DNA of 64,000 nt from Ignavibacteriales bacterium (GTDB lineage Bacteria > Bacteroidota > Ignavibacteria > UBA10030), in assembly GCA_016194505.1 (NCBI GenBank), contig JACQBK010000016.1, positions 5,654 through 69,653 of the forward strand, in the 5' to 3' direction. Numbering within the stretch: position 1 is the first letter of the stretch; each line of letters starts with the position of its first letter. A program made the translations under genes and the position numbers. The notes beneath the pieces are model-generated. The model saw nothing but the letters and a program-made list of their open reading frames with translations. It had not been told where the DNA came from and made no database searches. This document shows positions 457-55,275 of the stretch, in pieces.

Positions 457-726
457 GGGATATTATTCTCCTTTGGACAAAAAAACTCACTCGCTGAATA
501 AAAATATCATCAAACAAGACTGATACAAAAATATATCAAACGTTTGATTCTGTTGCAAGGAAGATTATCGGCTTTCAATTCTCAACTTTAAGAGCACTTT
601 TTTATGGGTGAGGTGACCTCGCCCATATTGGAAATTGGAAAAGTAGAAATAGTTAGTCATTTACGTGCGACGCACATGCAAAGTAGGGCGAATTTTAATT
701 CGCCTATTTGGGTAGGTAGGCTTGGC

Positions 727-752
727 GGACTGTCCCGAAGGGATTCCTTTGG
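727..752 (+). other. Conserved 26-nt motif GGACnGTCCCnAnGGGATTCCTTnGG inside a structured 5' leader; second copy at 9438-9464
   Basis: Seen directly. ggactgtcccgaagggattcctttgg here versus ggacagtcccaaggggattccttcgg at 9439-9464. The motif is embedded in nested inverted repeats: gtagggcgaa/ttcgccctac, ggcgaatt/aattcgcc and gggtaggtagg/cctacc. Confidence 0.35.
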
Positions 753-821
753 AAAAGTTCGCCCTACGTGGCGTTTACCACCTACCTTGATTCTCACTGC
801 AAATCTCTCTACTTTGTTTTA

Positions 822-5598: not shown

Positions 5599-5626
5599 AG
5601 AGCGTCCCGATACATCGGGACGCTCT
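5599..5626. terminator. Perfect 12-bp stem hairpin between convergent genes (bidirectional terminator candidate; no clear U-tract)
   Basis: agAGCGTCCCGATacatATCGGGACGCTct. It is nearly the same hairpin as at 2849-2874. Confidence 0.35.
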
Positions 5627-6105: not shown

Positions 6106-6250
6106 AAATCCTCCGGTTGAATTATAACTTGTTCCCAGAACTCTTTTCGTTTGCTGGAAGGGCTAAAGCCCTTCTCCGTTTTGGACGCTATTCTACCGTT
6201 AATTACTGTAAGGATTTTAACTCTCAAAAAACATTTAGAAAGAATCATCT

Positions 6251-9153
6251 TTAAAATGACTTGTAGAGATATTCCTTCAAAAACTTTCCCGTGTATGAGT
6301 TGGGAGATTGAGCTATGGTCTCCGGTGTTCCGGTGGCAACGATGCGACCTCCGGCGTCTCCCCCTTCGGGACCCAAGTCAATCACAAAATCGGCACATTT
6401 TACAACATCCATATTGTGCTCGATCACAACAAGTGAATGCCCTGCTTCTACAAGCGCATCGAAACATGTAAGCAGTTTTGCGATATCATCAAAATGCAAG
6501 CCGGTGGTAGGCTCATCGAAGATAAAGAGAATTTTCCCTTCTGTGTGCGATGCCGTAAGGTGGTGGGCAAGTTTTATCCGTTGCGCCTCTCCACCTGAAA
6601 GCGATGTCGCCGGTTGTCCCAGATGAAGGTATCCTAACCCGACATCATCCAATACCTGCAAGCGTTTTGCAACGCGTTTGCCATCGGCAAATTGGGAAAA
6701 GAACCCAATCGCTTCCATCACCGTCATTGCAAGAATCTCGTCAACATTTTTTCCATGATAACGGATTTCCAACACTTCCTGCTTAAAACGTTTTCCCTTG
6801 CATCCCTCGCAGATCAGATACAAATCGGCAAGGAACTGCATCTCGATTTTTTGGAACCCATCCCCCTCGCACACATCGCAACGACCTCCGGGAACGTTAA
6901 ACGAGAAATGCCCGGACTTAAACCCTCGAATCTTCGCCGCTTGCGTGTTTGCAAGCAAATCGCGAATGAGATCAAAGGCTTTAATATAGGTAATTGGATT
7001 CGACCTCGGCGTACGGCCAATCGGCGATTGGTCAACAAGCTCGACAAGATTAATGTGATGATCGCCTTTGATGGAAGAAAATTTCCCTACGCTCCCTTCA
7101 AACCCACCTTTGATTTTTTGGATGCCGGCATAGAGAATTTCATGTACCAGTGTGCTCTTGCCTGAGCCGCTTACCCCCGTAACGCATACAAACAAACCAA
7201 GCGGGATGCGGACGTCAATTTCTTTCAGGTTGTGTTCCGAAGCGCCCTTGACAAAAATAGATTGCTCGGAATCTTTCCGTCGTTTTTTCGGTACGGGAAT
7301 AGAGTTTTTGCCGTTAAGATACCGCGCCGTCAAAGATGTCGGATGCTTCAGCAATTCATCAATCGTTCCGTTGAAAACAACTTCGCCGCCGTGTTCCCCC
7401 GCCTTTGGTCCCATATCCACAACAACATCCGCAGAGCGCATCATTTCTTCATCGTGCTCAACGACCATGACCGTGTTGCCGACATCCCGAAGGGATTTTA
7501 AAATATTGATAAGCTTGTTGTTATCCCGCGGATGGAGACCGATGCTTGGTTCATCCAAAACGTATAACGAGCCGACAAGCGATGAGCCAAGCGACGTTGC
7601 AAGATTGATGCGCTGGGATTCTCCGCCCGAAAGCGTCATCGTCAGCCGGTCGAGCGTTATGTAGCCGATACCGACATCGTTCAGAAATTTTAGCCGCTTG
7701 CGGATTTCTTCCAAAATCCGTTTGGCAATGTCTATCTCGGCTTTCGTCAGCCTGATTTCTTGAAAGAACGCATGCGCTTCCTCAATCGTCATACGAACGA
7801 CATCATAAATTGTTTTCCCGCCGACACGAATGTTGCTTCGTTCCGCAATCGCGCCCCACCGCATTCATCGCACGTCGTATAACCCCGAAAGCGGCTTAAA
7901 AAAACGCGGTAGTGGATTTTGTAGGACTTGCGCTCAATGAATTTGAAGAACTTGTTAATGCCGTCAAATCCCTTGTAACCGTTCATGACTACATCGTGTT
8001 GTTGTTCGGTAAGGCGTTTGTAAGGAACATCCAACGGCACACCCGCTTCGCCCGCAATGCGTTGTAAGTCCAGAAGATTTTCTTTCCAGCGAGGAAATGT
8101 CCACGGGAACACCGCTCCCTCCCTGAGCGTTTTGGTGGGATCGGGTATGACTAAATCCATATCAATCCCCATCGAGCGGCCGAAGCCCTGGCATTTTGGG
8201 CACGCGCCGACTGGATTGTTGAATGAAAACATGCGCGGGTCGGGGTCCTCATAACGAATTCCATCATCAGGGCACTCATAATGCTGGGAGAAGCGGAGCA
8301 TTTTGGCGGAATCAAGCAACTGCACGAGAGCATAGCCTTCGCCTTCCACAAACGCCGCTTCGATGGAATCGGCTAAGCGCGTGTCGTTATCCTTATCATC
8401 CTTGCGGATAATCAAACGGTCAACGAGAACGAAAATTCCCTTTTTGCTTTTCGCTTTGTAATCGGTTTCGTTCAGGTCAATAAGTTCACCCGCCATCTTT
8501 TCGGCGGGTTCCGTAACGACAATCCTAAAGAATCCGCGTTGCTTGAGGACATCAAATTCTTCTTTGAGCGAGCGACCCGGATGGTCGTGCATAGGGAAAA
8601 GGATATAGAGCTTTGTCCCGTCCGATTCTTGTTTCAGACGATCAACAACATTCGAAACCGTATCGCGCTTAACGAGCTTGCCGCACACGCGGCAATACGT
8701 TTGCCCGATGCGCCCGAAGAGCAAGCGGAGATAATCGTACACTTCGGTCGTTGTTCCAACGGTCGAGCGGGGATTGCGGGTAGATGTTTTTTGCTCGATA
8801 GCAATGGAGGGGCTGATGCCCGAAATCAAATCTACATCGGGCTTATCCATTCGCTCGAGAAATTGGCGGGCGTATGAGGAGAGGCTTTCTACATACCGTC
8901 GTTGACCCTCGGCATAGATGGTGTCAAATGCGAGGCTCGATTTTCCTGAGCCGCTGACACCGGTAACAACGATAAGCTTGTTACGCGGAAGCTCCAGGCT
9001 GATGTTCTTGAGATTGTGAACCCTCGCCCCTTTGACAACGATTTTGGTAAGTTTTTTGCCTGCTCCCCCGTTTGTCGGGAACGGTGCGGTTACGGCAGGA
9101 TTCTCGCCTGCAAGAACTGCGGTTTTTTTCCTTTTTCTTTTTTCATTTTTCAT
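6251..9153 (-). CDS. uvrA: Excinuclease ABC subunit A (UvrA), reading frame broken by an apparent 1-nt frameshift near 7850-7865
   Basis: Two abutting ORFs (7789..9153 and 6251..7864) carry the UvrA N-half (..VTGVSGSGKSSLAFDTIYAEGQRRYVESLSSYARQFL.., zinc fingers) and C-half (second Walker A VTGVSGSGKSTL, two LSGGE signatures). The junction ..CDECGGARLRNEAT / NIRVGGKTIYDV.. is colinear with E. coli UvrA in a different frame. Confidence 0.85.
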
Positions 9154-9437
9154 TGAATAAGTAACTTACTTCATCAAAGCCGCAAAATCAAGAGGGATAT
9201 GGGATATGTCACGCGAAGCGGGATCTCCGCCGTAGGCGGATGCGCCTTCGGTGCAAGCCTCTGGCTGAGGATACGGGATGTGAGACGTGAGCTAAAGAAT
9301 GTGAGGCGGAAGACGGGAGATGAAACACACATCTCACATCTTGCTACCACTTTTTCCCCCGCCTCCCCTTGACTTTTAAGAGAGCCTTCCACAGATTAGT
9401 CGCAAATGAATCTCCAGTTGTCCGAGAGTTAAACTCT

Positions 9438-9464
9438 CGGACAGTCCCAAGGGGATTCCTTCGG
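9438..9464 (+). other. Second copy of the conserved GGACnGTCCC..GGGATTCCTT motif, flanked by perfect hairpins
   Basis: ccgagagtt-aaactctcgg hairpin, then the motif, then cttcgattccg-ttca-cggaatcgaag (11-bp perfect stem). Lies in the 366-nt divergent intergenic region upstream of uvrA. Confidence 0.35.
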
Positions 9465-9573
9465 AAGAATTTCTTCGATTCCGTTCACGGAATCGAAGAA
9501 CAATACAGATTAGTCTCAGATGAATCGTGTGAAATTGCCTTTCGATGGGCAGATAAAAAAGGAATCAAACTTC

Positions 9574-9978
9574 ATGGACAAAAAGAGAATTTCATCTATT
9601 ATAATATTCATCGGGGGTGCATTAATCTTTTTTATGGGGATTGCCCATGCATTGGGCATTTCCAGCATCAAGGAGTCATTGTCTCAACATTCTACGCTGA
9701 CTCAAAGCCGTCAGAACCAAATCTTGATTAATTGGGTTTTCTCCGGAGCGGCGATCAGCGCGTTGGGTCTCATTGCTTTCTTGCTTGCACCTCAAGTAAG
9801 AAGGGGAAAAAAGTTCGCACGAGACATTACCGCACTCATTGGAGTGTTCTTTCTTTTGATTTCTTTAATAGCGTACCTCATTGAGCCTGACCCAAGGCTT
9901 CTTCTCGTATTTACTTTTCCGGCGCTGTTGCTCCTGATGCCTATGATATTCTTCAGGAAAGAATTTACCTCGGACTAA
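9574..9978 (+). CDS. Hypothetical small integral membrane protein (4 TM)
   Basis: ORF 9520..9978. The start is uncertain; MDKKRISSIIIFIGGALIFF at 9574 was chosen. Four hydrophobic helices. Confidence 0.45.
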   Translation: MDKKRISSIIIFIGGALIFFMGIAHALGISSIKESLSQHSTLTQSRQNQILINWVFSGAAISALGLIAFLLAPQVRRGKKFARDITALIGVFFLLISLIAYLIEPDPRLLLVFTFPALLLLMPMIFFRKEFTSD

Positions 9979-10012
9979 CATCGTAGTCTGAGCCAATGAA
10001 ACCTCGACTCCC

Positions 10013-10387
10013 ATGCTCAAAACCGCCTCAAACCTTTATCTATTAAACGCCACCCTTCTTATCACGCACGAGATAGACTCCGCATACTGGAAGGAGTGGG
10101 AGCTGTTCGGGATCCCCGGCGGCATACAACTCTTTCTGATACTGAATTTTTTGCTCCTGCTCGCGTTTCTCTTCGGATACAAACAGTTGCTGCTGGGGAC
10201 AAAAAGTGGTTATATATTTTCTCTTGCATTGGCTTTTGGGGGTATCTTTGCCTTTGTTATTCACACGTATTTTATACTCGCGGGACATGCCGAGTTCACA
10301 CCGCCCATTTCGCTGGTGATCCTTATCGCTACGCTGATCGTATCGCTTGCGCAGGGATTGGTTGCGCTTAAATCGTTACGAACTTAA
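10013..10387 (+). CDS. Hypothetical small integral membrane protein
   Basis: 124 aa with 4 predicted TM helices. Confidence 0.45.
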   Translation: MLKTASNLYLLNATLLITHEIDSAYWKEWELFGIPGGIQLFLILNFLLLLAFLFGYKQLLLGTKSGYIFSLALAFGGIFAFVIHTYFILAGHAEFTPPISLVILIATLIVSLAQGLVALKSLRT

Positions 10388-10404
10388 AAAAAATAGAATG
10401 ATAT

Positions 10405-10608
10405 GTCATTGCGAGGAGTCCCGACCTGTCCCGATGTTTTTTATCGGGGAGGGACGACGAAGCAATCCCACCTGCCCCGTGTAGCGGGGTAAATCACTAA
10501 AAAAGGGATTGCCCGCCTGTCCCGCCATGCCTGCGGCAGGCAGGTTGTACGGGATCCCGAAAAACGGGATCGGCGGACAGGCTTCAGCAAAAAACGCTTC
10601 GCAATGAC
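10405..10608. repeat. ~200-bp multi-hairpin repeat element with 12-bp terminal inverted repeats (MITE/BIME-like). Shares its core with the elements at 14931-15147 and 55109-55155
   Basis: TIRs GTCATTGCGAGG...CTTCGCAATGAC. Internal hairpins are gtcccgat/atcgggga, ccccg-tgtag-cgggg, gcctgtcccgcc..ggcggacaggc and gatcccg-aaaaa-cgggatc. The 22-nt core ccatgcctgcggcaggcaggtt is identical to 14992-15013. Confidence 0.5.
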
Positions 10609-10700
10609 GCAAAAATTTTATTTTTCAGATGTCTCTACTTATTACGTTCTACAGTTAAATATGCGGCAAGTTTATGTATCAAGTAGTCCGAGGAGGATAA

Positions 10701-11156
10701 ATGAAATTCATTAGTCTGCTCTTTTCCGCATGGGTTTTTTCTCACAACATTATTGTAGCGCAAATAACTGAAGATGCAGCTATAAAGTATGCTCAGAAGA
10801 TTTCCGTAGCCAAACTTGATTCAACGTTGACCGGAAAGCCGCTTGCCGATTGGCTGCGAGGAATTGTGGGAAAGAACGCAACCATACATTGGGAACTGAA
10901 CGACTGCGGCGAGCAAACAGGCAATCCGGAAGTTGATGAGAAGCGTGATATACCAGCCTGTGTAGGTCTCGATGTGGATTTAATGGATGGGCGTAAGGTG
11001 AGCATGGCAATTCTTATCGGTACCTATAAGAAGGGCATTTTCGGCTCCCCTGAAATTTATGACATCTTCATAGATTCTAACGATGGATATCATTCGATAA
11101 AGCGACTGAGCGAGTTTGAAAAAATTCTACGGCACAAAATGAAAATAAAAGAATAA
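10701..11156 (+). CDS. Hypothetical secreted protein
   Basis: N-terminal signal peptide MKFISLLFSAWVFSHNIIVAQ. No recognisable domain. Confidence 0.45.
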   Translation: MKFISLLFSAWVFSHNIIVAQITEDAAIKYAQKISVAKLDSTLTGKPLADWLRGIVGKNATIHWELNDCGEQTGNPEVDEKRDIPACVGLDVDLMDGRKVSMAILIGTYKKGIFGSPEIYDIFIDSNDGYHSIKRLSEFEKILRHKMKIKE

Positions 11157-14342: not shown

Positions 14343-14888
14343 TTATTTATCAGGATTCTCTTCATCGTACTCCCATTGTACCACATTGTTGATGATGTAT
14401 TCATTGATACGCCTCAAATCATCTTCATTGCGAATGACATGTTCCCAGTAATTACGTTGCCAAACAGGTATGCGAGGCGTGTTGCGCAACTGATTGACAC
14501 GTTTTGTGACTGCGGATTTAAACAATCGAACGATGGTAGGAATGGAATTTGATGTTGGTTTTCCAAATTGTTCGTTTGTAGGGGCACGTTGCAACGTGCC
14601 CCTACTATTATTTATTAAGATTATTACGCCGTGAAAATGGTTTGGCATAATAACAAACTCACCTAGCTCTATATCGGGACGAATGATCGGTGTTTTTAGC
14701 CATTCATCTTTTACAATGTTACCGACATCACTCAATATCATTTTCCCACCAACAATTTCTCCAAACACACATTGTTTATTAAATGTGCAAATCGTTATGT
14801 AATATCCACCTTCTTGAGAATAATCATATTTTCTTAATCGAATAGAGCGGCGTTGACGGGCGATTGAATATTTATTCATCAAACACAA
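14343..14888 (-). CDS. IS200/IS605-family HuH Y1 transposase of the REP-associated tyrosine transposase (RAYT) type
   Basis: HuH motif MPNHFHGVI and catalytic-Tyr motif WQRNYWEHVIRNEDD, compare E. coli RAYT ..PEHMHCIW.. and ..QPRFWEHAIRN.. as recalled from memory. A REP/BIME-like element lies 43 nt upstream. Confidence 0.75.
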   Translation of the reverse strand: MCLMNKYSIARQRRSIRLRKYDYSQEGGYYITICTFNKQCVFGEIVGGKMILSDVGNIVKDEWLKTPIIRPDIELGEFVIMPNHFHGVIILINNSRGTLQRAPTNEQFGKPTSNSIPTIVRLFKSAVTKRVNQLRNTPRIPVWQRNYWEHVIRNEDDLRRINEYIINNVVQWEYDEENPDK

Positions 14889-14930
14889 GGAAATTTTATC
14901 TCTTGTTGAATTGTTTTAATTAGAAGCCAT

Positions 14931-15147
14931 CTCAAAAACTATAGTCAAGGCTAAAGCCCTGTTTGTTTTTGAGCTTCCCCCGACCTATCCCGCCATGCCT
15001 GCGGCAGGCAGGTTTTACGGTTCCGTTCTTTGGAATCCCGCACTAAGAACGGAATCCAAAAAGCGGGAGATGCTGAAAAGCGCAAAGGTCGGGGTTATTA
15101 AGATACCTCTCTAGCCAAAGTTATAACTACGTCCTTTAGGACGTAGA
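14931..15147. repeat. REP/BIME-like multi-hairpin repeat (copy A), immediately upstream of the RAYT gene. Paralogous to 48958-49147
   Basis: Starts ctcaaaaactat.. like copy B. It contains a gggctaaagccc hairpin, the gcctgcggcaggc hairpin and ccccgacct...aggtcgggg inverted repeats. The ~95-nt core (..ggttccgttctttggaatcccgc..gaacggaatccaaa.agcgggagatgctgaaaagcgcaaaggtcggggtt) is near-identical to copy B. The terminal hairpin is ctacgtcc-ttta-ggacgtag. Confidence 0.55.
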
Positions 15148-15247
15148 CACAATCCAGAACAATTCGAGGGTTTCAACCCTGAAAAAAAACATAAATCATT
15201 TTTGAGATAGCTTCTACGTAAATTCTTTCACTCCGGTAAGCGTTTAT

Positions 15248-16171
15248 CTAAAACGTCAATGTTGCGGTTGCGGTAGGGACAAATTCAACGAAGCCGTACG
15301 GTCGCAGTGTAGGTTTGAGATGCGCTTCAAGTTTCAATTGCTGGTTGAATTGCGTGGCGCTCCACGCGGCATCAAGCGCGCTTAAGATGTGGTTCGCCAC
15401 AAGCACGGAAGCGGATGTGCTCGCTATGTTAAAGAAATCATTCGCTTTGCCGCGCATAGCCGAATACTCAAGAAAGCGCGGAGAAACATTGCTCGTAATA
15501 ATATCTGAAGGCGTGATGTTTCCATCATCCCATCCGCCCGCGAATTGCGGATATTTTCCAATCAGCTCGTAATATTGTTGTTCCGGTCGCCGCGGCAAGC
15601 GGTGAGTAAAACCATTGCCGCTTTTTTTTGCAATTTGATCTTCGGCAGCATTTAACTTTGCCCAGTCAACACGCTCCCATGGCGGCTGGCTGCCACTGCC
15701 TGTTACAAGTCCCGAGAAGCCGCCAGCGTCAGGGTTCAACTGCCCGCCGTACTTCTCAATCCATTGAGCATAGAGAACAACCGACCAGTGCTCGTCGGCA
15801 TAGTTTTGGAAAAAATCCGTCTGGTTATTTCCTTTTGACGTGTAGGCGGCGTACACGATCCACAAAGCGACCTCAGCCGCCAAAAATCCTCCCGCCCTCC
15901 AATAGTTTTGAGTATACAATTCGCCCGTACCGGGAATAGCGGCGGAAAACAACCCTGCCAGCAACGGCGATTTTTTTTGTTCGTCATACTGAGAAAGCGT
16001 GCCCTTAAGAGAATCAAGAGATCCCCATTCAAACCCCGCCATCAAATCAGCTCGTAGGTTACCCGTAAGCTGAAAAGCTTTTATCCCCTCGCTTTGAGCA
16101 AATCTCATCTGCCCGATTGCCGCGGCAGGCAACAGCATAACCATCATCACTACAACACGTGAAGCGCGCAT
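15248..16171 (-). CDS. DUF5683-like hypothetical outer-membrane/secreted protein
   Basis: Signal peptide from M17 (MRASRVVVMMVMLLPAAAIGQ). The segment SPLLAGLFSAAIPGTGELYTQNYWRAGGFLAAEVALW resembles the DUF5683 core. The C-terminal ..ATATLTF is beta-barrel-like. Confidence 0.45.
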   Translation of the reverse strand: MRASRVVVMMVMLLPAAAIGQMRFAQSEGIKAFQLTGNLRADLMAGFEWGSLDSLKGTLSQYDEQKKSPLLAGLFSAAIPGTGELYTQNYWRAGGFLAAEVALWIVYAAYTSKGNNQTDFFQNYADEHWSVVLYAQWIEKYGGQLNPDAGGFSGLVTGSGSQPPWERVDWAKLNAAEDQIAKKSGNGFTHRLPRRPEQQYYELIGKYPQFAGGWDDGNITPSDIITSNVSPRFLEYSAMRGKANDFFNIASTSASVLVANHILSALDAAWSATQFNQQLKLEAHLKPTLRPYGFVEFVPTATATLTF

Positions 16172-16184
16172 GATCGCTCTCTTT

Positions 16185-19100
16185 CTATTCTCCTGTATGC
16201 ACCGCGTTTCTAAAAACATTACTCACCTGATTCAATTCAAACCCAAAGAGCACTCCTAAATAAAATCGCCATTCTTTTCCGTACGATACATCCACGTTGT
16301 TGAATGTTTTGTTGAACCGGTCGAAGCCGTACGCTCCGCTGAAAAAAATACGCGTAGGATATTGATAAAACGAAAATGCTTCGAGGCGAAGCTCGAACCC
16401 CGCATCGCTTTTCCAAGTGCTGAAAGATGGCGTTGCGCCCGTCCACGCTTCTCCGTAATCGCCGAAGACGGAGCCGTATAGTTTCGTGAAATAAAATTGG
16501 AACAGCCGAACATTGATGGAAGTCCAAATCGGAAAACGATACGTGGCATTGAACGTCGCCGCATTATTGCCGCCCAAGGCATAGAATGGATAGCCCCGCA
16601 TCCCGATAAATCCGCCGGCATAAAAATCGAAAAATCTATCCACTTCTTTCCCCAGAGTGCTATGCGCTTGCGCCGATAACGTAAGGGTATGTTTCGATAT
16701 GGGCAAGCCTATGTGCTCATTCCATTGAAGCTCGAGGCGATGAAAGCTGGGCTTGCTGTAACGAGGAACAAGGACACCACTTTGAATATCAAACTCACCT
16801 TCGGCGTTGAACTTATTTGTTTCATATGAATACTTCAATGAAAATGTCCGACCGATAGGGTTAATATCCTTATCAACGGATGGCTGAATACCTTCGTGAG
16901 TAAATTGGGCGGAAAAAACATTGCCTATGAGATATAAATTATCGAACGCGGGAGAAACTCCCACGGTGGGAATGAAAAAACCCCCGATGGCGGCGCTGTA
17001 ACGGCTGAGCGCGTACCCGATTCTTAGTTGGTTATGTTCACTAAAAATCTTTTGCCGCATCGTGACATCGAATTCAAGAAGGTTATAGGTTACGTCGGTT
17101 GGGATGCTATAATTTCGATCCGTATACACAGAGAGAGAGACATCCGTTTTGCGGGAAATGTTGTATAATTCCAACGAGACAACCGGCTCTAACCCAAGTT
17201 GATAGAGCAACGGAACTGCGTCCTTGTATTCAAACACAAAAAATAAATCCCGCTCTAAGCGCCGATTGATCGCCGCGCCACCGAACAGCGAAAACTTATC
17301 GAGCATATCGCTCGATGAAAAATAAAAGCCGGGACGAATAATATCTAAGCCAGTATTGTGAGGATTATAATTATCTACGCGCAAAAAGGGAATAACAGTA
17401 AGGCTGGTGAATACGTTCTTGTAGGGTTTCGAGTGTGATGAGACCGAATCTGGCAACGAGCGGACGATTGTAACCATTCTCGTCCCGTCCAATGCAGGCA
17501 CTTTGACCGAATTGTTCTCATTGAGGTTTTGACCGGCAGAAAAATAAGGTGTAGCTTCAACTTCCTTCGGGTTTTGTAAATAGGCAATCTTATAACCGCT
17601 GGATATATAGGAAGCGAACGCAAGCGCTCCATCAGAGTTGATGACGGGCAACAACGCTCCGCCTAGAACATTGGTAATTTGTTGTTTTGTTTTTGTCCCG
17701 ATTTCATAACGATAAATGTTAAATATCCCGCTCGCATCGGAAGCGTAGTAAATATATCTGCCATCGGGTGAAAAACCTGGGTTCCGCGAATCGCCATCGC
17801 GCACGAGTATTTCAAAGCGAGACCCATCTTCTGCAATTATCGCCACAGATTGATTATGTCCGACCGAATAACCGAACGCAATGAGTTTCCCGTCCGGCGA
17901 CCACGCAGGTGTGTACGATTGCTCGCCCTCCGTAAACTTTGTCACCTGTTTGACATTTTTTCCCTCCGCGTCCGCAATACCAATATTGACTGTGCCGTCA
18001 TGGCCGTATGCAAAGACGAGTTTCGTTCCATCGCGAGAAATGCCGGGGTTCCATGCGCGCAATCCATACGTCAGACGCTGTTCTTTTTTGGCGATAAGAT
18101 CGTATCGGTAAATATCGGAAAGCTTCGACCAATGGGGATTATCCCTGCTCAGTTTGGAATAATACACATAGCGCCCATCCGGTGAAAACGACAACGATGA
18201 CCTTGTGGTAATATCTAACTCCTGAGATTTTTTTGATTCAAGATCATAGAGATACACAGAGCTTAGACTGAAATAATCTTTGCCCTTGTTGGAGATGTAA
18301 GCAAGTTTTTTTCCATCCGGAGAAAATGCCGGATAAAAATTGCCAAAACCCTCCGGCTCGATTATTGCTCCTTCAACTCTTGCAGATGACATTGAGCTAA
18401 GCAGTTGTCGGTAGTGCTCCGTCTTGGCTTTTTTCCACTCTTGGTATAATTCTTCACCCGATTTTTCGAGAACGGCGGCGATCGCGCCATCCACCGTTGC
18501 TCGCGGCAATACGCTTAGTGCCTTAGAAATTTCACGAAGCTTATCCACGCCGTACGTTTCCGCAATATACTGCACGATAGAAAAGCCCGCATTGTACGAT
18601 GATTCGTTGCCGAGACTTGTCTTCCCGAACACCGACATTTCTTCCCACGTCAGCGGGTTACCATCGAGCATATACATCCTTAAAATCATATCACGGTGCG
18701 AATCCCAGTAATCATAATTGATGTCCGGATGATTATACTGGGCAACGCCTTCCGCAAGCCACGTCGGCACGACAAACGCTGAAAATGGGTACGAGGCAAT
18801 GACATTCGGATAGCCATACAGGACATCGGGGCGACGCTCGGCTTCATACCCCAACCATTGGAAATACACGGCGGGAAATTTTCTTCCCAGCTTCATCGCC
18901 GTTTGAATCTGGACAATATGAGTAAACTCGTGCGTTACCACATCTTTGAGCCACGGGTGGGTTCCGCGAAGCTCAAAATCAAGCGCAGGAGCCCAAATCT
19001 CGATTTTGTTATCATAAAAATATGCCGCCCCGTTTGAATAATCATCGTGGTCGCGAATAACGAAGCTGACTTTTTGATCCGGCTGATGCTGATACATTTC

Positions 19101-37694: not shown

Positions 37695-38670
37695 GCCCGC
37701 CTCGCTCGATACGATTAAAGCCCCCATTGAATCAGAGCTTAAGAAATTCAGCGGGTTCTTTAAGGACTCCATGCGCTCCAAAGTCGGGCTTGTTGATATT
37801 ATTGCCCGCTACCTTGTTCGCCAAAAAGGGAAACGTGTCCGACCGATTTTAGTATTCTTAAGCGCAAAGGCGTGCGGTGAGATCAATGAAAGCACCTATC
37901 GCGCCGCGACGTTGGTAGAGATTTTGCATACCGCAACGCTCATTCACGACGACGTTGTTGATGATGCGGATACGCGCCGGGGACTTGCCTCTATTAACGC
38001 GGTGTGGAAAAATAAAATCGCGGTCCTTATGGGTGATTATCTCCTCTCCCGCGGTTTGCTTCTCTCGTTAGAAAGCAATGATTATTTTTTCCTCCTCTCC
38101 ACTTCCAATGCCGTAAAACGGATGAGCGAAGGCGAGTTACTGCAAATTCAAAAAAGCAGGCAGCTTAATATTGACGAAAAAACTTATCTTAAGATCATAG
38201 GTGATAAGACCGCATCGCTGCTTTCCACATGTACGGAAATTGGCGCGGCAAGCGCAACGCAGGACCAGCATAAACGAACGCTGTTGCAGGAGTTTGGCGA
38301 GCATGTGGGGATGGCATTCCAAATTCGGGATGACCTTTTGGATTACCTCGGACGAAAAAGCATTATAGGAAAACCCACGGGCATTGATTTAAAAGAAAAA
38401 AAACTCACATTGCCGTTGATTTATGCATTGAACCATGCCCCTCGTAAAGATGCAAAGCAAGCGTTAAAAATGGTAAAAAATGGAGCGAAACAAAAAGAGA
38501 TCGAGTGGGTCGTTCAGTTTGTTGAAGCGAATGGGGGGATTGAGTATGCAATATCGCGGGCGGAATATTATTCCGAGCTTGCGCGAACAAATCTCGCTCC
38601 CCTGCCGGAATCGCCTGCTAAAGAATCGTTGCTTCAGTTCGTGGATTTTGTGATGGAAAGGAACAGTTAG
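37675..38670 (+). CDS. ispB: Long-chain polyprenyl diphosphate synthase (IspB-like hepta/octaprenyl)
   Basis: First DDxxD motif LIHDDVVDDADTRRG and second IRDDLLD. 331 aa. Has a 20-nt overlap with tatC. Confidence 0.85.
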   Translation: MTLTKRKPASLDTIKAPIESELKKFSGFFKDSMRSKVGLVDIIARYLVRQKGKRVRPILVFLSAKACGEINESTYRAATLVEILHTATLIHDDVVDDADTRRGLASINAVWKNKIAVLMGDYLLSRGLLLSLESNDYFFLLSTSNAVKRMSEGELLQIQKSRQLNIDEKTYLKIIGDKTASLLSTCTEIGAASATQDQHKRTLLQEFGEHVGMAFQIRDDLLDYLGRKSIIGKPTGIDLKEKKLTLPLIYALNHAPRKDAKQALKMVKNGAKQKEIEWVVQFVEANGGIEYAISRAEYYSELARTNLAPLPESPAKESLLQFVDFVMERNS

Positions 38671-38688
38671 CAGATTGCTGATAACAAC

Positions 38689-38722
38689 AAAAAACCCGCT
38701 TCAAATAAAGCGGGTTTTTTGT
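38689..38722. terminator. Bidirectional rho-independent terminator
   Basis: aaaaAACCCGCTtcaaataaAGCGGGTTtttt, between the convergent ispB and the TlpA-like gene. Confidence 0.6.
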
Positions 38723-38735
38723 TGCAACTCAACAT

Positions 38736-40649
38736 TCAATGTGGAGAATAAAAACTATCGTCCAACAATAGTTCTATTTGGAGGTTCAATGTCTTCTCCA
38801 TCATTTCCTCTCCTTCAAACCCCAAACTTTTGAACTGAATTTTCCCGTTCTTATCAATAATAAATTTTGTCGGTATGCCCTGCACGCCGTATTTATCCGC
38901 ATATCCTTCATCGAATAACACGGGGAAAGTATATTTCTTATCAGCGATAAACTTCTTTACAAGGCTGGCTCTTGTGGTCCCCTTTTCATATTCCCAAGTA
39001 TTAAGAGTGAGGATAACGACGTTCGGGTTACCTTTGTATTTATCGTATACTTTTTGAAGATAAGGGAATGAGGATATACACGGACCGCACCATGTTGCCC
39101 AAAAATCAATCACAACCACCTTACCTTTCAAGCCCGACAACTTCACCGTTTTTCCATCAAGCCCCTTGAGCGCAAAATTAATTGCCGGTTTATTGAGACG
39201 GGTTTTCAAGAATTCTTTTTTCAAATTTTCCATTCCCCGGTTTTTTAACTCAGCCAGTTTTTCATCAAACCCTTTTTCGGAACCGATTACTTTTATATAG
39301 GCAGTCTTGAACCGTTCCACCAGCTTCGCATCGAACTTATTTTCCTTTATACATTGTTCTGCAACAGTGAGCGCTTGAGTATAATTGCCAGTTTGCACAT
39401 AACAATCTATAAGCCGCTCGTTCGTCGTCACTTGCTCACCCTTAGTCAGGTTATACGCTTCCTGATAGACATCCCCCGCTTCGCGCAGCTTTCCCCATTT
39501 ATATAACCCCTCCCCGTACGTATTGAGGGCCTTTCCTAAATTATCGTTTTTATTTTTTTTCCACTCACTTGTACTGTAATGTGGCGGTTTCAAAGCAGAG
39601 TCGTTGCTCCTGAAAAATTCGACTCCTTTTTTTGCCCATCTTACTGCATCGTCCATATTTTTTCCATCGTTAATCATTGCCGTTGCTAAAATGGTATATC
39701 CATTGTCCAAAATCTTCGGCAGCGAGTCTAAAAGGGCTGCCGCTTTACTGTAATGCTTGGCTTGTATGAAAAAGTGCACAAGCATTCCTTGGTAGCGACC
39801 TCTGATCTCCTCTTTCGGCGGGAAGTTCTTCAAGAATGCTTCAAGCATTTCAGCTTTCTTCACTCCATCTTTTTCCCGAAAAATTTCTATCCATCGACTT
39901 CGTTCGGCAATTTTTCCCTTTGGGTTTGCAGCCATTGCAGCTGTGATGATCTCGTTTTTCTTCTCTTGTTGCCCTGCTTGGTCAAGCCAAGCCAGTAAAT
40001 CCGCAACCGCTTCTTCATTGCCCTTGTTAGTTTCGTATAAACTCAATATCTCTTCCTTAATTTTTTGTTTAGTCGAATCTCCTGGGGTTTCCATTGTCCA
40101 AAAGTGCCAAAGCGTTGCAAAAGCTAATATGTTAGCAGGGTACAATTTTTTCTCTCGAGCAATCTCGGCTTTGCCTTCGTTGACATTTCTTAGAAGAGAC
40201 CAGGATCCAGCAGCGGGGTAGAATAACAATTCCGCATATTGGAGGTGAGCACCTCGTACGGGTTTACCGTCCTTTCCGTACACCAAGTAACGCCAAACAT
40301 TCTCACCGTTATCGTCCTTAAGGTCGCCGGAAGTAAATCGTAAAAGTATCAGGTTCGCTTTTTCATCAGAAAGCTTCGTTGAACCGAACCATTTTTTCCC
40401 TTTTTTTTTCATCGGCACTTCGACCAGGAAGGGCTGAGCCCCTAGTCCTCTCATTAAAAGCACTTCGGCCGTTATCTCTTTTACTGACTGCAAATTAGCC
40501 GATTTTGCCCCGGCATTATAAGAAATGGAAATCTCGTCGCCAATTTTTGGCATCTTAGGAGAAATGGAAGCAACCTGCTCTTGACCTGCACATACTGACA
40601 AGAGCAACAATATCATAAGCAACGGTGCAGTGAAAATATTTCGCATCAT
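38736..40649 (-). CDS. Secreted TlpA-like thiol:disulfide oxidoreductase with a large N-terminal TPR/helical domain
   Basis: The C-terminal thioredoxin fold has a WATWCGPC active site. The upstream ~450 aa are helical-repeat rich. Signal peptide present. Confidence 0.65.
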   Translation of the reverse strand: MMRNIFTAPLLMILLLLSVCAGQEQVASISPKMPKIGDEISISYNAGAKSANLQSVKEITAEVLLMRGLGAQPFLVEVPMKKKGKKWFGSTKLSDEKANLILLRFTSGDLKDDNGENVWRYLVYGKDGKPVRGAHLQYAELLFYPAAGSWSLLRNVNEGKAEIAREKKLYPANILAFATLWHFWTMETPGDSTKQKIKEEILSLYETNKGNEEAVADLLAWLDQAGQQEKKNEIITAAMAANPKGKIAERSRWIEIFREKDGVKKAEMLEAFLKNFPPKEEIRGRYQGMLVHFFIQAKHYSKAAALLDSLPKILDNGYTILATAMINDGKNMDDAVRWAKKGVEFFRSNDSALKPPHYSTSEWKKNKNDNLGKALNTYGEGLYKWGKLREAGDVYQEAYNLTKGEQVTTNERLIDCYVQTGNYTQALTVAEQCIKENKFDAKLVERFKTAYIKVIGSEKGFDEKLAELKNRGMENLKKEFLKTRLNKPAINFALKGLDGKTVKLSGLKGKVVVIDFWATWCGPCISSFPYLQKVYDKYKGNPNVVILTLNTWEYEKGTTRASLVKKFIADKKYTFPVLFDEGYADKYGVQGIPTKFIIDKNGKIQFKSLGFEGEEMMEKTLNLQIELLLDDSFYSPH

Positions 40650-40795
40650 AATAGTTTCCTCTCTTCGGTGAACTACTATTGGTTAAGGTGCTTATATGAG
40701 AGATGCAGAAAGGTGAAAAAAGTTGCTTTTCAACAAAAAAAATGAAGCCACCTTAAAAGTCCGGCTTTAAGATGGCTTAAAAAAAAGATAAAAAT

Positions 40796-41353
40796 CTACA
40801 CCTTTACAAATTCATGTTCGTCGTAGCGTACGACCAATACCGGACAAGGAGCATAGCGAACAACCTTTTCTGCGGTACTGCCGAATAAAATATGTTCCAC
40901 ACCCGTATGTCCGTGTGTTGCAATGATAATCAGGTCGAACGATGCTTCACGGGCAAAGCGATCAATTTCATAGAAAGCTTTACCGGTACGAATAACATAA
41001 TCAGCCTTGACCTTCTTACCTATTTCCTTTTTAATTAAGCCCTCTAATTCCTCCGCTCCTTTTTTACGCAGTTCGTCTTCAACGCTTGGGAATCCCACTT
41101 GACCGAAGCTGAAATCAGCGGGATAGACGGCTGGCTCGACAACATAGATGAGATTGATAGAAGCGTTGAATTGCCGTGCAAAGGGGATGGCGTACTTTAA
41201 CGCATTTTTGGAATGCTCCGAAAAATCTATCGGAACCAGAATGCGTTTGAGTTCGATGGGGCGCGCTTTAGCGGGACTTACCGGCTTTTTGCGCTGAAGG
41301 TCTCTTTTTTTCGCTGTTGATTTTCCGCGAAGGATCTGTTTTCTCTTTGCCAT
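40796..41353 (-). CDS. Universal stress protein (UspA family)
   Basis: ..ILVPIDFSEHSKNALKYA....IIIATHGHTGVEHILFGSTAEKVVRYAPCPVLVV (ATP-binding G-x2-G-x9-G-S/T). The start overlaps the upstream gene. Confidence 0.65.
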   Translation of the reverse strand: MAKRKQILRGKSTAKKRDLQRKKPVSPAKARPIELKRILVPIDFSEHSKNALKYAIPFARQFNASINLIYVVEPAVYPADFSFGQVGFPSVEDELRKKGAEELEGLIKKEIGKKVKADYVIRTGKAFYEIDRFAREASFDLIIIATHGHTGVEHILFGSTAEKVVRYAPCPVLVVRYDEHEFVKV

Positions 41354-48895: not shown

Positions 48896-48957
48896 ATTGT
48901 ATGCCTTTTAAGATAAGTTGAACGAAAGTGCAACCTATTATTTTAATTACAAATTGT

Positions 48958-49147
48958 CTCAAAAACTATCTTCGTTGCTGGAAGCGGGCTGAATCCCTTA
49001 TTTATTTTGTGTGCTGTCCCACCCCGACCTATCCCGTTGTACGGTTCCGTTCTTTGGAATCCCGCTCACTGAACGGAATCCAAAGAGCGGGAGATGCTGA
49101 AAAGCGCAAAGGTCGGGGTTATAGCCACGTCCTTTAGGACGTGGCTA
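48958..49147. repeat. REP/BIME-like multi-hairpin repeat (copy B), paralog of 14931-15147
   Basis: Same ctcaaaaactat 5' end. Near-identical ~95-nt core (ccccgacctatcccg..ggttccgttctttggaatcccgc..gaacggaatccaaagagcgggagatgctgaaaagcgcaaaggtcggggtt). It lacks the gcctgcggcaggc insert. The terminal hairpin gccacgtcc-ttta-ggacgtggc has compensatory changes relative to copy A. Confidence 0.55.
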
Positions 49148-49272
49148 CAATAACATTTGACACTTTATGGATTTTAACCCTCACAAAAAGTCTATAGAAA
49201 TCATTTTGGGGAAACTTATACTTTCCACGGCATCTCAGAGATGGCGGGAAAATGGTCAATTAAAGATTTCCG

Positions 49273-53448: not shown

Positions 53449-53622
53449 ATCGTGTCCAATTATGACCTCACCCCGACCCTCTCCTGAAGGAGAGGGGGCA
53501 ATTCAAATTCTTTTTGTCTAAGTAAAAGCTCATCTCTTGATGAATTAACAGTTCAAGTCCCTTCCCCTCCAGGGGAAGGATAGGATGGGGTCAGTTATTG
53601 CCTCTGGCTCTTTCTATCCTGC

Positions 53623-54258: not shown

Positions 54259-54993
54259 TTATAATTTATTTCTCTCAACTTTTGCGCGGGCAACTTGATT
54301 GGCAATAAGCGCTGCTGTAGCGCCTGCGCCAAATCCATTATCAATATTCACAACGGTCAAACCCGGCGCACAGGATTGCAGCATCGTCATCAACGCCGCT
54401 TCGCCTTTTCCTCCATAGCCGTACCCTGTGCTTACGGGAACGCCGATAACCGGCATCGGCACCAGTCCGCGTACAACGGAAGGAAGCGCGCCTTCCATCC
54501 CCGCAACTACTACTACCGCGGAGACTTCTTTTTCAAGAATTAGTTTCAAAGGCTCCATCAAACGATGGATGCCGGCAATGCCGACGTCATAGCAGGCGGT
54601 AACATCGCATCCCATAGTTTCGGCTGTGACTTTTGCTTCTTCCGCCACGGGAAGGTCTGCCGTGCCCGCCGCAAAGATTGCAATTTTGCCACCGGACGAT
54701 TTCGGATTATAATTGTGGTTCTTAGCGACGAACGTTCTACCCAATTGGTTATGATTGACGGTACATGCAGTACCCAAAGAATCGGATAGGGCTTTGGCGC
54801 ATTCATCACTCACACGTGTAACGAGAGCAATCCCCGCTTTTTCAACCATCGAACGTACAAGCGAAATAACCTGCTCATTTGTCTTGCCTTCGGCAAATAT
54901 CGCTTCGGGAACACCCGTCCGCTCCGCCCGGTGAATATCTAAGCGGGCAAATTCTTCTACCATTTCAACTTGGCTGGAATGACGATGGGGCAT
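54259..54993 (-). CDS. larB: LarB-like (PurE-related) pyridinium-3,5-biscarboxylic acid mononucleotide synthase family protein
   Basis: PurE-like fold ..KIAIFAAGTADLPVAEEAKVTAETMG....VVVAGMEGALPSVVRGLVPMPVIGVP... 244 aa. Confidence 0.6.
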   Translation of the reverse strand: MPHRHSSQVEMVEEFARLDIHRAERTGVPEAIFAEGKTNEQVISLVRSMVEKAGIALVTRVSDECAKALSDSLGTACTVNHNQLGRTFVAKNHNYNPKSSGGKIAIFAAGTADLPVAEEAKVTAETMGCDVTACYDVGIAGIHRLMEPLKLILEKEVSAVVVVAGMEGALPSVVRGLVPMPVIGVPVSTGYGYGGKGEAALMTMLQSCAPGLTVVNIDNGFGAGATAALIANQVARAKVERNKL

Positions 54994-55108
54994 TTCGTTG
55001 TGTTGGTTAACTTTCGCCTGCTCCCTCTTTGGGATGGGTTTAAATATAAAGCAAAATCTTCAAAAGAACAGGGAGAAAATGAACTAGGATAATATTCTAA
55101 AAATAATA

Positions 55109-55155
55109 GGACGCCCGCCTGCCGTGCCTGCGGCAGGCAGGCGTCGGGCAGGCTG
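55109..55155. repeat. GC-rich hairpin sharing the gcctgcggcaggcagg core of the dispersed repeat family. Probable minus-strand terminator for tsaC
   Basis: ggacgcccgcctgccgtgcctgcggcaggcaggcgtcgggcaggc. On the minus strand it is followed by cctattattttt. Confidence 0.4.
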
Positions 55156-55275
55156 AAACAGCAGAAAAAACTGAAAAATCGCCGATAAAAAACTTCCAAT
55201 ATTTTAATCGGCTGATGTTGAGGCAAAAACTAAAATACTACCAAAAGAAATTGAAAAAGACGAAAAGAATATGTG

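Follow-up and report, generated by a model that had tools for sequence, protein, structure and literature searches.

What kind of constraint, if any, lies behind a paired base change in a small hairpin that occurs in two copies of a repeat in the genome of an uncultured Ignavibacteriales bacterium? The question was raised by the first-pass annotation of a 64-kb stretch of DNA (hereafter the window, by which we mean the whole stretch analysed), in which a T-to-C change on one arm of the hairpin was reported to be matched by an A-to-G change on the other. This was read as the covariation signature of a selected stem, acting either as RNA or as a substrate for a HuH transposase. Both hairpins are indeed present (Table 1). 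The hairpin of copy A lies one base lower than originally placed, and that of copy B, gccacgtcc/ttta/ggacgtggc at 49124-49145, is the inner part of a longer 11-bp stem. The double change is also real: columns 106 and 123 of the alignment form a U-A pair in copy A and a C-G pair in copy B.

There are exactly two perfect matches to the 16-mer ACGTCCTTTAGGACGT in the window, compared to 0.32 occurrences expected even if three mismatches are allowed. Perfect hairpins of at least 8 bp account for 25 entries in the window, about 13 of them distinct; Markov simulations gave 7.6 on average. Within the 34-nt hairpin region, copies A and B differ at five positions, and all five fall in the extended stem; the pairs concerned are 9/26 (T-A in A vs C-G in B), 7/28 (A.A vs G-C) and 6/29 (A.C vs A-T). 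By combinatorics, the chance of obtaining two complete pairs among five random changes in 30 positions is ~0.02, and that of a single compensated pair is ~0.03-0.04. A shuffle control, which has no statistical power when applied to two sequences, reached the observed value in 250 of 500 shuffles. The pattern of changes in the stem is real and mildly non-random, yet it is not a covariation test. The reported double change stands, but two copies, one compensated pair and a value that so many of the shuffles attain do not suffice to establish the covariation signature of a selected stem.

Two full copies, A and B, of a composite repeat measuring about 290-315 nt are present in the window, and the hairpin lies within this repeat. 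Each copy fills a gap between two minus-strand genes: copy A is bordered by the stop of one gene, 15248-16219 (-), and by the start of another, which encodes a REP-associated tyrosine transposase (RAYT), and copy B lies between the stop of the PEPCK gene (49273) and the start of the PhoU_div gene (48895). The repeat consists of two layers, namely an outer part and an inner, very stable multi-stem core. The core is pseudo-symmetric, being made of two diverged inverted units of ~42 nt that have no obvious GTAG tags, and its reverse strand matches the core covariance model with an E-value of 4.7e-7. Apart from two indels the cores of A and B are 98% identical, compared to 78-79% with many indels in the outer parts and a divergence of about 15-25% around the hairpin. 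Such uneven divergence would be consistent with the core being a younger or constrained mobile unit. The outer part of copy A ends in terminal inverted repeats of 24 nt, the arms of which are 88% complementary; the right arm of copy B has decayed. Both copies fold very stably relative to shuffled sequences (z -5.7 to -7.0), equally well on either strand. From the hairpin to the terminal motif, the sequence folds no better than shuffles (z -1.9 in A and +0.1 in B), and the possibility that the right-hand module forms one long double-foot hairpin was rejected on that ground.

Table 1. Positions of the hairpins, of the composite repeat and its parts and relatives, and of the neighbouring transposase gene in the window.
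Feature	Position	Strand	Description
Second GTAG...CTAC "double-foot" structure	683..767	.	GTAGGGCGAA...TTCGCCCTAC, nested hairpin modules
S3, third decayed copy	6106..6250	+	Outer part only; without core, without 5' arm
C, related GC-rich multi-hairpin element	10405..10612	+	Shares block with copy A
REP-associated tyrosine (Y1/HuH) transposase gene (RAYT)	14343..14879	-	178 aa; NHFH, WQRNYWEH, YIINNV
GTAG...CTAC "double-foot" REP	14578..14605	.	Perfect 28-nt palindrome GTAGGGGCACGTTGCAACGTGCCCCTAC, in frame in RAYT gene
Composite repeat, copy A	~14911..15222	+	~312 nt, boundaries +/-~4 nt
Left arm of terminal inverted repeat, copy A	14915..14938	+	24 nt, imperfect, TTTAATTAGAAGCCATCTCAAAAA
Inner multi-stem core, copy A	14978..15095	+	CCCCGACCT...AGGTCGGGG, with 20-nt extra hairpin 14993-15012
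Insertion specific to copy A	15099..15124	+	26 nt between core and hairpin, GTTAT direct repeats at both ends
Hairpin, copy A	15127..15146	.	CTACGTCC-TTTA-GGACGTAG, 8-bp stem (ctacgtcc-ttta-ggacgtag)
Right arm of terminal inverted repeat, copy A	15199..15222	+	Includes terminal CTACGT at 15214-15219
Composite repeat, copy B	~48940..49229	+	~290 nt
Inner multi-stem core, copy B	49022..49119	+	98 nt, pseudo-symmetric
Hairpin, copy B	49122..49147	.	TAGCCACGTCC-TTTA-GGACGTGGCTA, 11-bp perfect stem
CCAC at right terminus, copy B	49225..49228	+	Insertion boundary; counterpart of CTAC 15214-15217 in A

The third copy, S3, has no terminal inverted repeats and is oriented relative to its flanking genes in the same way as A and B. 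At the homologous place it reads TTTT|GGACGC, where GGACGC occupies the position of the 3' arm of the hairpin. It follows from this structure that the core, the 5' arm and the loop were either inserted in A and B or deleted in S3; the 3' arm belongs to the outer layer of the composite repeat. Element C shares a block with copy A that measures 42 nt at 93% identity in gapped blastn (37 nt at 95% ungapped), and the motif CCCGACCTRTCCCG is common to both. Short contigs of the same organism, assembled from short reads, terminate inside A and C, which is a weak indication that these are multi-copy sequences.

Two further observations concern this part of the window. The uvrA gene is split into two reading frames, 6251-7864 and 7789-9153 (-), which overlap by ~75 nt and carry the UvrA_inter/UvrA_DNA-bind and the ABC_tran domains, respectively; the gene is continuous in the related locus L103, and the split is a frameshift, due to either a pseudogene or an assembly error. 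At 9193-10719, ~1.3 kb with two small genes (one encoding 152 aa, the other DUF6713) are present where L103 has 192 nt. This stretch is bracketed by GC-rich hairpin clusters, one at 9193-9519 and the other being element C, and for this reason it may be a mobile cassette.

Comparison with close relatives bears on the origin of copy B. The spacer between the PEPCK and PhoU genes is 377 nt long here and 79-80 nt long in four to five contigs of close relatives, whose PhoU-like protein is 88-94% identical to that of the window, and in the relative L094 (92-93% DNA identity over 20 kb) 33 nt stand in place of 331 nt of the window. These relatives lack copy B at the orthologous position, and it is therefore an insertion, gained relative to them. 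No further copy was found in 46 kb of sequence from the empty-site relatives. A target-site duplication was not detected either: there is no direct repeat at the boundaries of A or B, which are uncertain by ~4 nt, nor does one appear in comparison with the empty sites of L094, L095 and L096.

GC-rich hairpin modules have been gained or lost at other places between the window and L094, and small palindromic modules are common to several elements. At ~55096-55210, a segment of ~110 nt that is missing in L094 contains the GC-rich hairpin GCCCGCCTGCCGTGCCTGCGGCAGGCAGGCGTCGGGC, which carries the GCCTGCGGCAGGC module also seen in copy A and element C; a comparable module, GCCTGCCGGCAGGC, occurs elsewhere in L094. 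An orthologous hairpin cluster is found at 53449-53622 of the window and at 5624-5740 of L094, where modules have been gained or lost and the stems are kept. One difference between the two clusters is in a loop (CCTTCCCC-TGGA-GGGGAAGG vs CCTTCCCC-TAAA-GGGGAAGG) and another affects paired bases (CCCTCTCC...GGAGAGGG vs CTCCCCC...GGGGGAG). In the same comparison, an intergenic segment of ~100 nt at 54994-55095 (minus-strand sense), upstream of the AIRC/purE-like gene at 54259-54993, is ~98% identical to L094, which exceeds the 92-93% of the surrounding coding DNA. It has no match in Rfam and could be a conserved leader or a regulatory RNA. A variable island relative to L094 extends over 38666-40796 (L094 18098-18688), where the window has a gene for a 637-aa TPR-thioredoxin-like protein (38736-40649) together with a stretch of 618 nt, 40650-41267, that is free of ORFs, and L094 has Usp and HicB-like genes.

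Searches for additional copies were conducted at several levels and gave negative results. A 23-mer had no match in 185,579 species-representative genomes, and three scans of viral contigs gave none. A 20-mer had 13 matches in metagenomes, all of which are attributable to chance and lie in coding sequence; likewise, matches to CATTGCGAGG in more distant genomes are coincidences in coding sequence. No match was obtained by blastn against plasmids and phages, by short-word blastn against 1.29 Mb of related loci, or by comparing the concatenated six-frame translation of the element with 5.8 billion predicted proteins. The core covariance model, applied to 687 kb, found nothing below an E-value of 0.4 outside the window.

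The RAYT gene begins ~30 nt from the left end of copy A. Its ORF has no match in Pfam at the default threshold and matches Pfam Y1_Tnp weakly (E 0.0015). It matches the NCBIfam model NF047646, "REP-associated tyrosine transposase", with an E-value of 1.1e-17 and a score of 64 bits, which is below the 80-bit cut-off for equivalogs, and its sole match in PDB is 4ER8, the E. coli TnpArep, to which it aligns across the HUH and Tyr motifs. Comparison with the ortholog of a relative revealed the sequence ...VWQRNYWEHVIRNEDDLRRINEYIINNV... in the protein. RAYTs of subclass 2.4 are described by the motifs NH[IFV]H, WQ and YIxNNP (Quentin et al. 2018, PMC6006769); the subclass equals Group 4 of Bertels et al. 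2017 and is common in Cyanobacteria, Chlorobia and Bacteroidetes. With NHFH, WQ and YIINNV, the protein fits a REP-associated Y1/HuH transposase of this subclass. A published hallmark of subclass 2.4 is a REP in frame within the transposase gene. Here the gene contains in frame a perfect palindrome of the GTAG...CTAC type, which encodes RGTLQRAPT and is identical in L101, a related locus whose contig ends exactly at the palindrome and whose RAYT ortholog is found at the same position with 87% protein identity.

No second copy of the RAYT gene occurs in the 64-kb window, nor in 1.3 Mb of related loci besides the positional ortholog in L101, and as far as the window and the fetched loci show the gene appears to be a single locus with vertical descent. 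Annotation and profile searches found no transposase in the window other than the RAYT. The repeat flanks the gene on the 5' side only, there being nothing of the kind in 35 nt on the 3' side, and from the count of intergenic gaps the probability that copy A adjoins the gene by chance is roughly 0.07-0.1. RAYT flanks have been recognized by the high genome-wide frequency of 16-mers from the flanking intergenic sequence (PMC5581495); in the present case the 5' flank is copy A, the core of which recurs at 98% identity 34 kb away.

REPs of subclass 2.4 carry GT[AG]G on the 5' side and the complementary C[TC]AC on the 3' side, and in the long ones the bottom of the stem consists of three G-C pairs. 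The pair that covaries in the hairpin coincides with the R/Y position of these tetranucleotides, which read CTAC/GTAG in copy A and CCAC/GTGG in copy B. The motif occurs three times in each copy, as CTACGT at 15127, ACGTAG at 15141 and CTACGT at 15214 in A, and as CCACGT at 49125, ACGTGG at 49139 and CCACGG at 49225 in B. The third instance is located at the right terminus of the element, outside the hairpin, and in copy B it coincides with the insertion boundary given by the empty sites. It has switched in step with the other two, from CTAC in A to CCAC in B, and since this instance is unpaired, the switch suggests a coordinated identity of the motif within each copy rather than selection on the hairpin stem alone.

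The GC skew of the plus strand is negative across the whole window, and hence the minus strand, which is G-rich, has the sequence of the lagging-strand template; A, B and S3 share one orientation. Read along the minus strand, each full copy has GT[AG]G at the terminus, followed ~70-85 nt on by C[TC]AC-GTCC-TAAA-GGAC-GT[AG]G and then by the multi-stem core. The first four pairs of the core's closing stem are C-G, and this stem lies 6 nt (B) or 32 nt (A) from GT[AG]G.

Short modules of related kinds recur elsewhere in the window. The module CGGAC[T/A]GTCCC..GGGATTCCTT[T/C]GGAA is present at 725-760 and at 9437-9473 (30 of 36 positions identical), and the former copy is nested within the second GTAG...CTAC structure of Table 1. 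The hairpin (G)CGTCCCGAT-loop-ATCGGGACG(C) occurs at 2846-2875, 5599-5626 and 10428-10450, of which the first two are situated at gene ends and resemble terminators; all three share the stem base CGTCC/GGACG with the hairpin of copies A and B.

The interpretation that we favour, with moderate confidence and on the basis of the sequence comparisons described above, is that the repeat is a REP/REPIN/BIME-like one, mosaic and non-autonomous, that it belongs to the system of the adjacent RAYT, and that the hairpin is one of its features at the level of DNA. Of the two roles proposed at the outset, that of a HuH substrate is thus the one that gained ground, given a RAYT gene 30 nt from copy A and the match to its motif, and the RNA role found no support. 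The hairpin arms are a C[TC]AC and a GT[AG]G set on opposite sides of a mini-palindrome of 12 nt; being, on this reading, the same recognition motif in opposite orientation, the arms pair automatically. The apparently compensatory change from T-A to C-G would then mean that the type has switched throughout the copy, being GTAG in A and GTGG in B, a reading that relies on two copies and arose post hoc. We infer that the RAYT enzyme acts on the composite repeat: it would bind hairpins that fold in single-stranded DNA and have GT[AG]G at the foot, cut and rejoin them, and in this way it would have moved or copied the element, or its nearly identical core, to site B. Effects on mRNAs that run through the element would be secondary.

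The insertion polymorphism, the identity of the neighbouring gene, the match of the motif and the uneven divergence of core and outer parts all speak for this link between repeat and RAYT. Several observations speak against it. Only two full copies were examined, while genome-wide abundance is the core criterion for a REP. The order of motifs in the hairpin, 5' C[TC]AC...GT[AG]G 3', is the reverse of the published double foot, 5' GT[AG]G...C[TC]AC 3', and GT[AG]G is separated from the core stem by a spacer. The GTAGGG...CCCTAC palindromes at 14578-14605 and 683-767 look different from the composite repeat and may be the true partners of the RAYT. The one-sided position of the repeat, a profile score short of the cut-off and an adjacency probability that is not small count in the same direction, as does the lack of a significant fold between terminal motif and hairpin, and inverted terminal repeats as long as those of copy A are more typical of transposons that use other enzymes.

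It is known for IS608 that recognition involves pairing between a guide and the cleavage site. By analogy, one may conceive a rule, to which we assign a low probability, that the tetranucleotide at the cleavage end must match the foot of the internal hairpin, through either pairing or copying, and that the core is a separate unit which inserts site-specifically beside GGACGT in an older element. If such a matching rule were true, the locus would offer an example from nature of how a system of the REP/RAYT type can have its recognition of ends re-programmed.

The same observations can be accounted for in other ways. We consider it unlikely that the composite repeat is an ordinary MITE that adjoins the RAYT gene by coincidence, with the symmetric changes resulting from mutation within a palindrome, either by templating of one arm on the other in replication or repair or by gene conversion between the arms. 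Templated correction of palindromes could produce symmetric changes in the stem, and the stem of B is a longer and more perfect palindrome than that of A, as templated "perfecting" predicts. An ordinary MITE would also accommodate the 24-nt terminal inverted repeats of copy A with their 88% complementarity, the insertion relative to close relatives, and the resemblance of S3 to the outer element without its core, which implies that nesting or internal deletion occurs; furthermore, the adjacency to the RAYT has p ~0.07-0.1. However, no target-site duplication is seen at A or B, the right inverted repeat of B is decayed, and the window yielded neither a matching transposase nor an insertion sequence that shares these ends and could be the parent. 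A MITE would leave unexplained both the in-step switch of the third, terminal instance of the motif and the fact that the base that varies is the variable base of GT[AG]G. Two other DNA-level candidates were rejected: an integron attC site, because GTTAT does not fit GTTRRRY, and palindromic filler at a break opened from a hairpin, because the TTTA loop is not self-complementary.

Selection at the level of RNA, in which the element would be part of minus-strand mRNAs leading into the RAYT and PhoU-like genes or of a small RNA from the plus strand, with hairpin and core serving as a stabiliser, a processing site or a regulator, appears quite improbable to us. The location of A, B and S3 between co-directional genes, in the same orientation and 12-45 nt upstream of the next start codon, would agree with it, as would the very stable folds on either strand, the conservation of the core at 98% compared to 78% in its flanks, and the nature of the compensated pair, a double transition that can be passed via a G.U intermediate. 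Roles of REP elements in mRNA stability and termination have also been published (PMC3733652). Yet the element is missing in close relatives, so that the flanking genes do not need it, and a search of 687 kb of Ignavibacteria DNA revealed no structural homologue. The evidence from G.U pairs is contradictory, in that the core (GGUUCC/GGAAUCC) favours the plus strand and the hairpin extension the minus strand. The covariance models of Rfam 15 gave no match at the gathering score in the whole window and only chance-level matches around copy A at E-values up to 10, which argues against HEARO or omega-RNA, a riboswitch, a retron ncRNA and curated RNAs of other kinds; neither a tRNA nor a tmRNA was detected in the window with ARAGORN. 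Scans for sigma-70 promoters and intrinsic terminators yielded nothing above shuffles, and the hairpin was rejected as a terminator since no run of T follows it. Finally, the compensated pair might be a chance coincidence between two diverged copies with an unconstrained stem, which we regard as very unlikely. In favour of chance are the small number of sequences, which is two, a divergence of about 15-25% around the hairpin, and the shuffles, half of which reach the observed value; on the other hand, all five differences fall on stem positions and four of them make up two complete pairs (~0.02), and the third instance of the motif changes in step.

Within the interpretation as a REP/BIME-like element linked to the RAYT, the feature is probably a lineage-specific representative of a known kind of bacterial repeat rather than a new kind of RNA or a new class. 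REP/REPIN-RAYT systems are best studied in Proteobacteria, and to our knowledge subclass 2.4 (Group 4) has been described from sequence surveys only. The present locus resembles systems of this subclass in having an apparently single-locus Y1/HuH gene with palindromic repeats in the flanking intergenic DNA and a REP in frame, in the GT[AG]G and C[TC]AC tetranucleotides, and in a long stem with G-C pairs at the bottom; the construction of the core as an inverted doublet is reminiscent of a REPIN. It differs from them in that two copies are seen, the order of motifs at the hairpin is reversed, a spacer separates motif and core, the repeats are one-sided, and the element is a composite of ~300 nt as opposed to a REP of 20-40 nt or a doublet of ~100 nt. 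With the BIMEs of enterobacteria it has in common a mosaic structure of short palindromic modules, variously combined, in gaps between co-directional or convergent genes, such modules being common to A, B, C, S3, the structure at 683-767, the clusters at 9.2-9.5 kb and 53.5 kb and the hairpin at 55.1 kb. Unlike in BIMEs, no IHF-type or other accessory motifs were identified here, and the module sequences are unrelated.

Some properties are shared with other mobile elements. The locus shares with IS200/IS605 elements and their gene-less derivatives (PATEs) an enzyme of the Y1/HuH type and hairpins close to the ends of the element. In both, no target-site duplication is obvious, the terminal tetranucleotide has a matching sequence at the foot of a hairpin inside the element, and all copies are oriented alike with respect to a replication-strand signal. 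In contrast to IS200/IS605, the enzyme here is of the REP-associated class and is encoded outside the element, and neither a TnpB gene nor an omega-RNA was found in the window or with Rfam. The inverted repeats of ~24 nt, the small size, the intergenic location and the strong folding are features of TIRYT/"TIRtrons" (Di Nocera et al. 2013, PMC3733652) and of MITEs such as Correia, ERIC and RUP (PMC2229807). It is the transposase gene that lies between the inverted repeats in TIRtrons, but a neighbouring element that lies between them here; no target duplication was seen, and the published motif GGGGWSAS was not found.

The interest of the locus is that it combines in one place a RAYT with a REP in frame, an adjoining composite repeat, an empty site, and a coordinated GTAG/GTGG difference between copies, and the empty site in a relative that is 92-93% identical shows that the gain was recent. 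If the link between transposase and element does not hold, the repeat is an ordinary lineage-specific one; if it is true, the locus would provide a compact natural case for how RAYT enzymes read hairpins.
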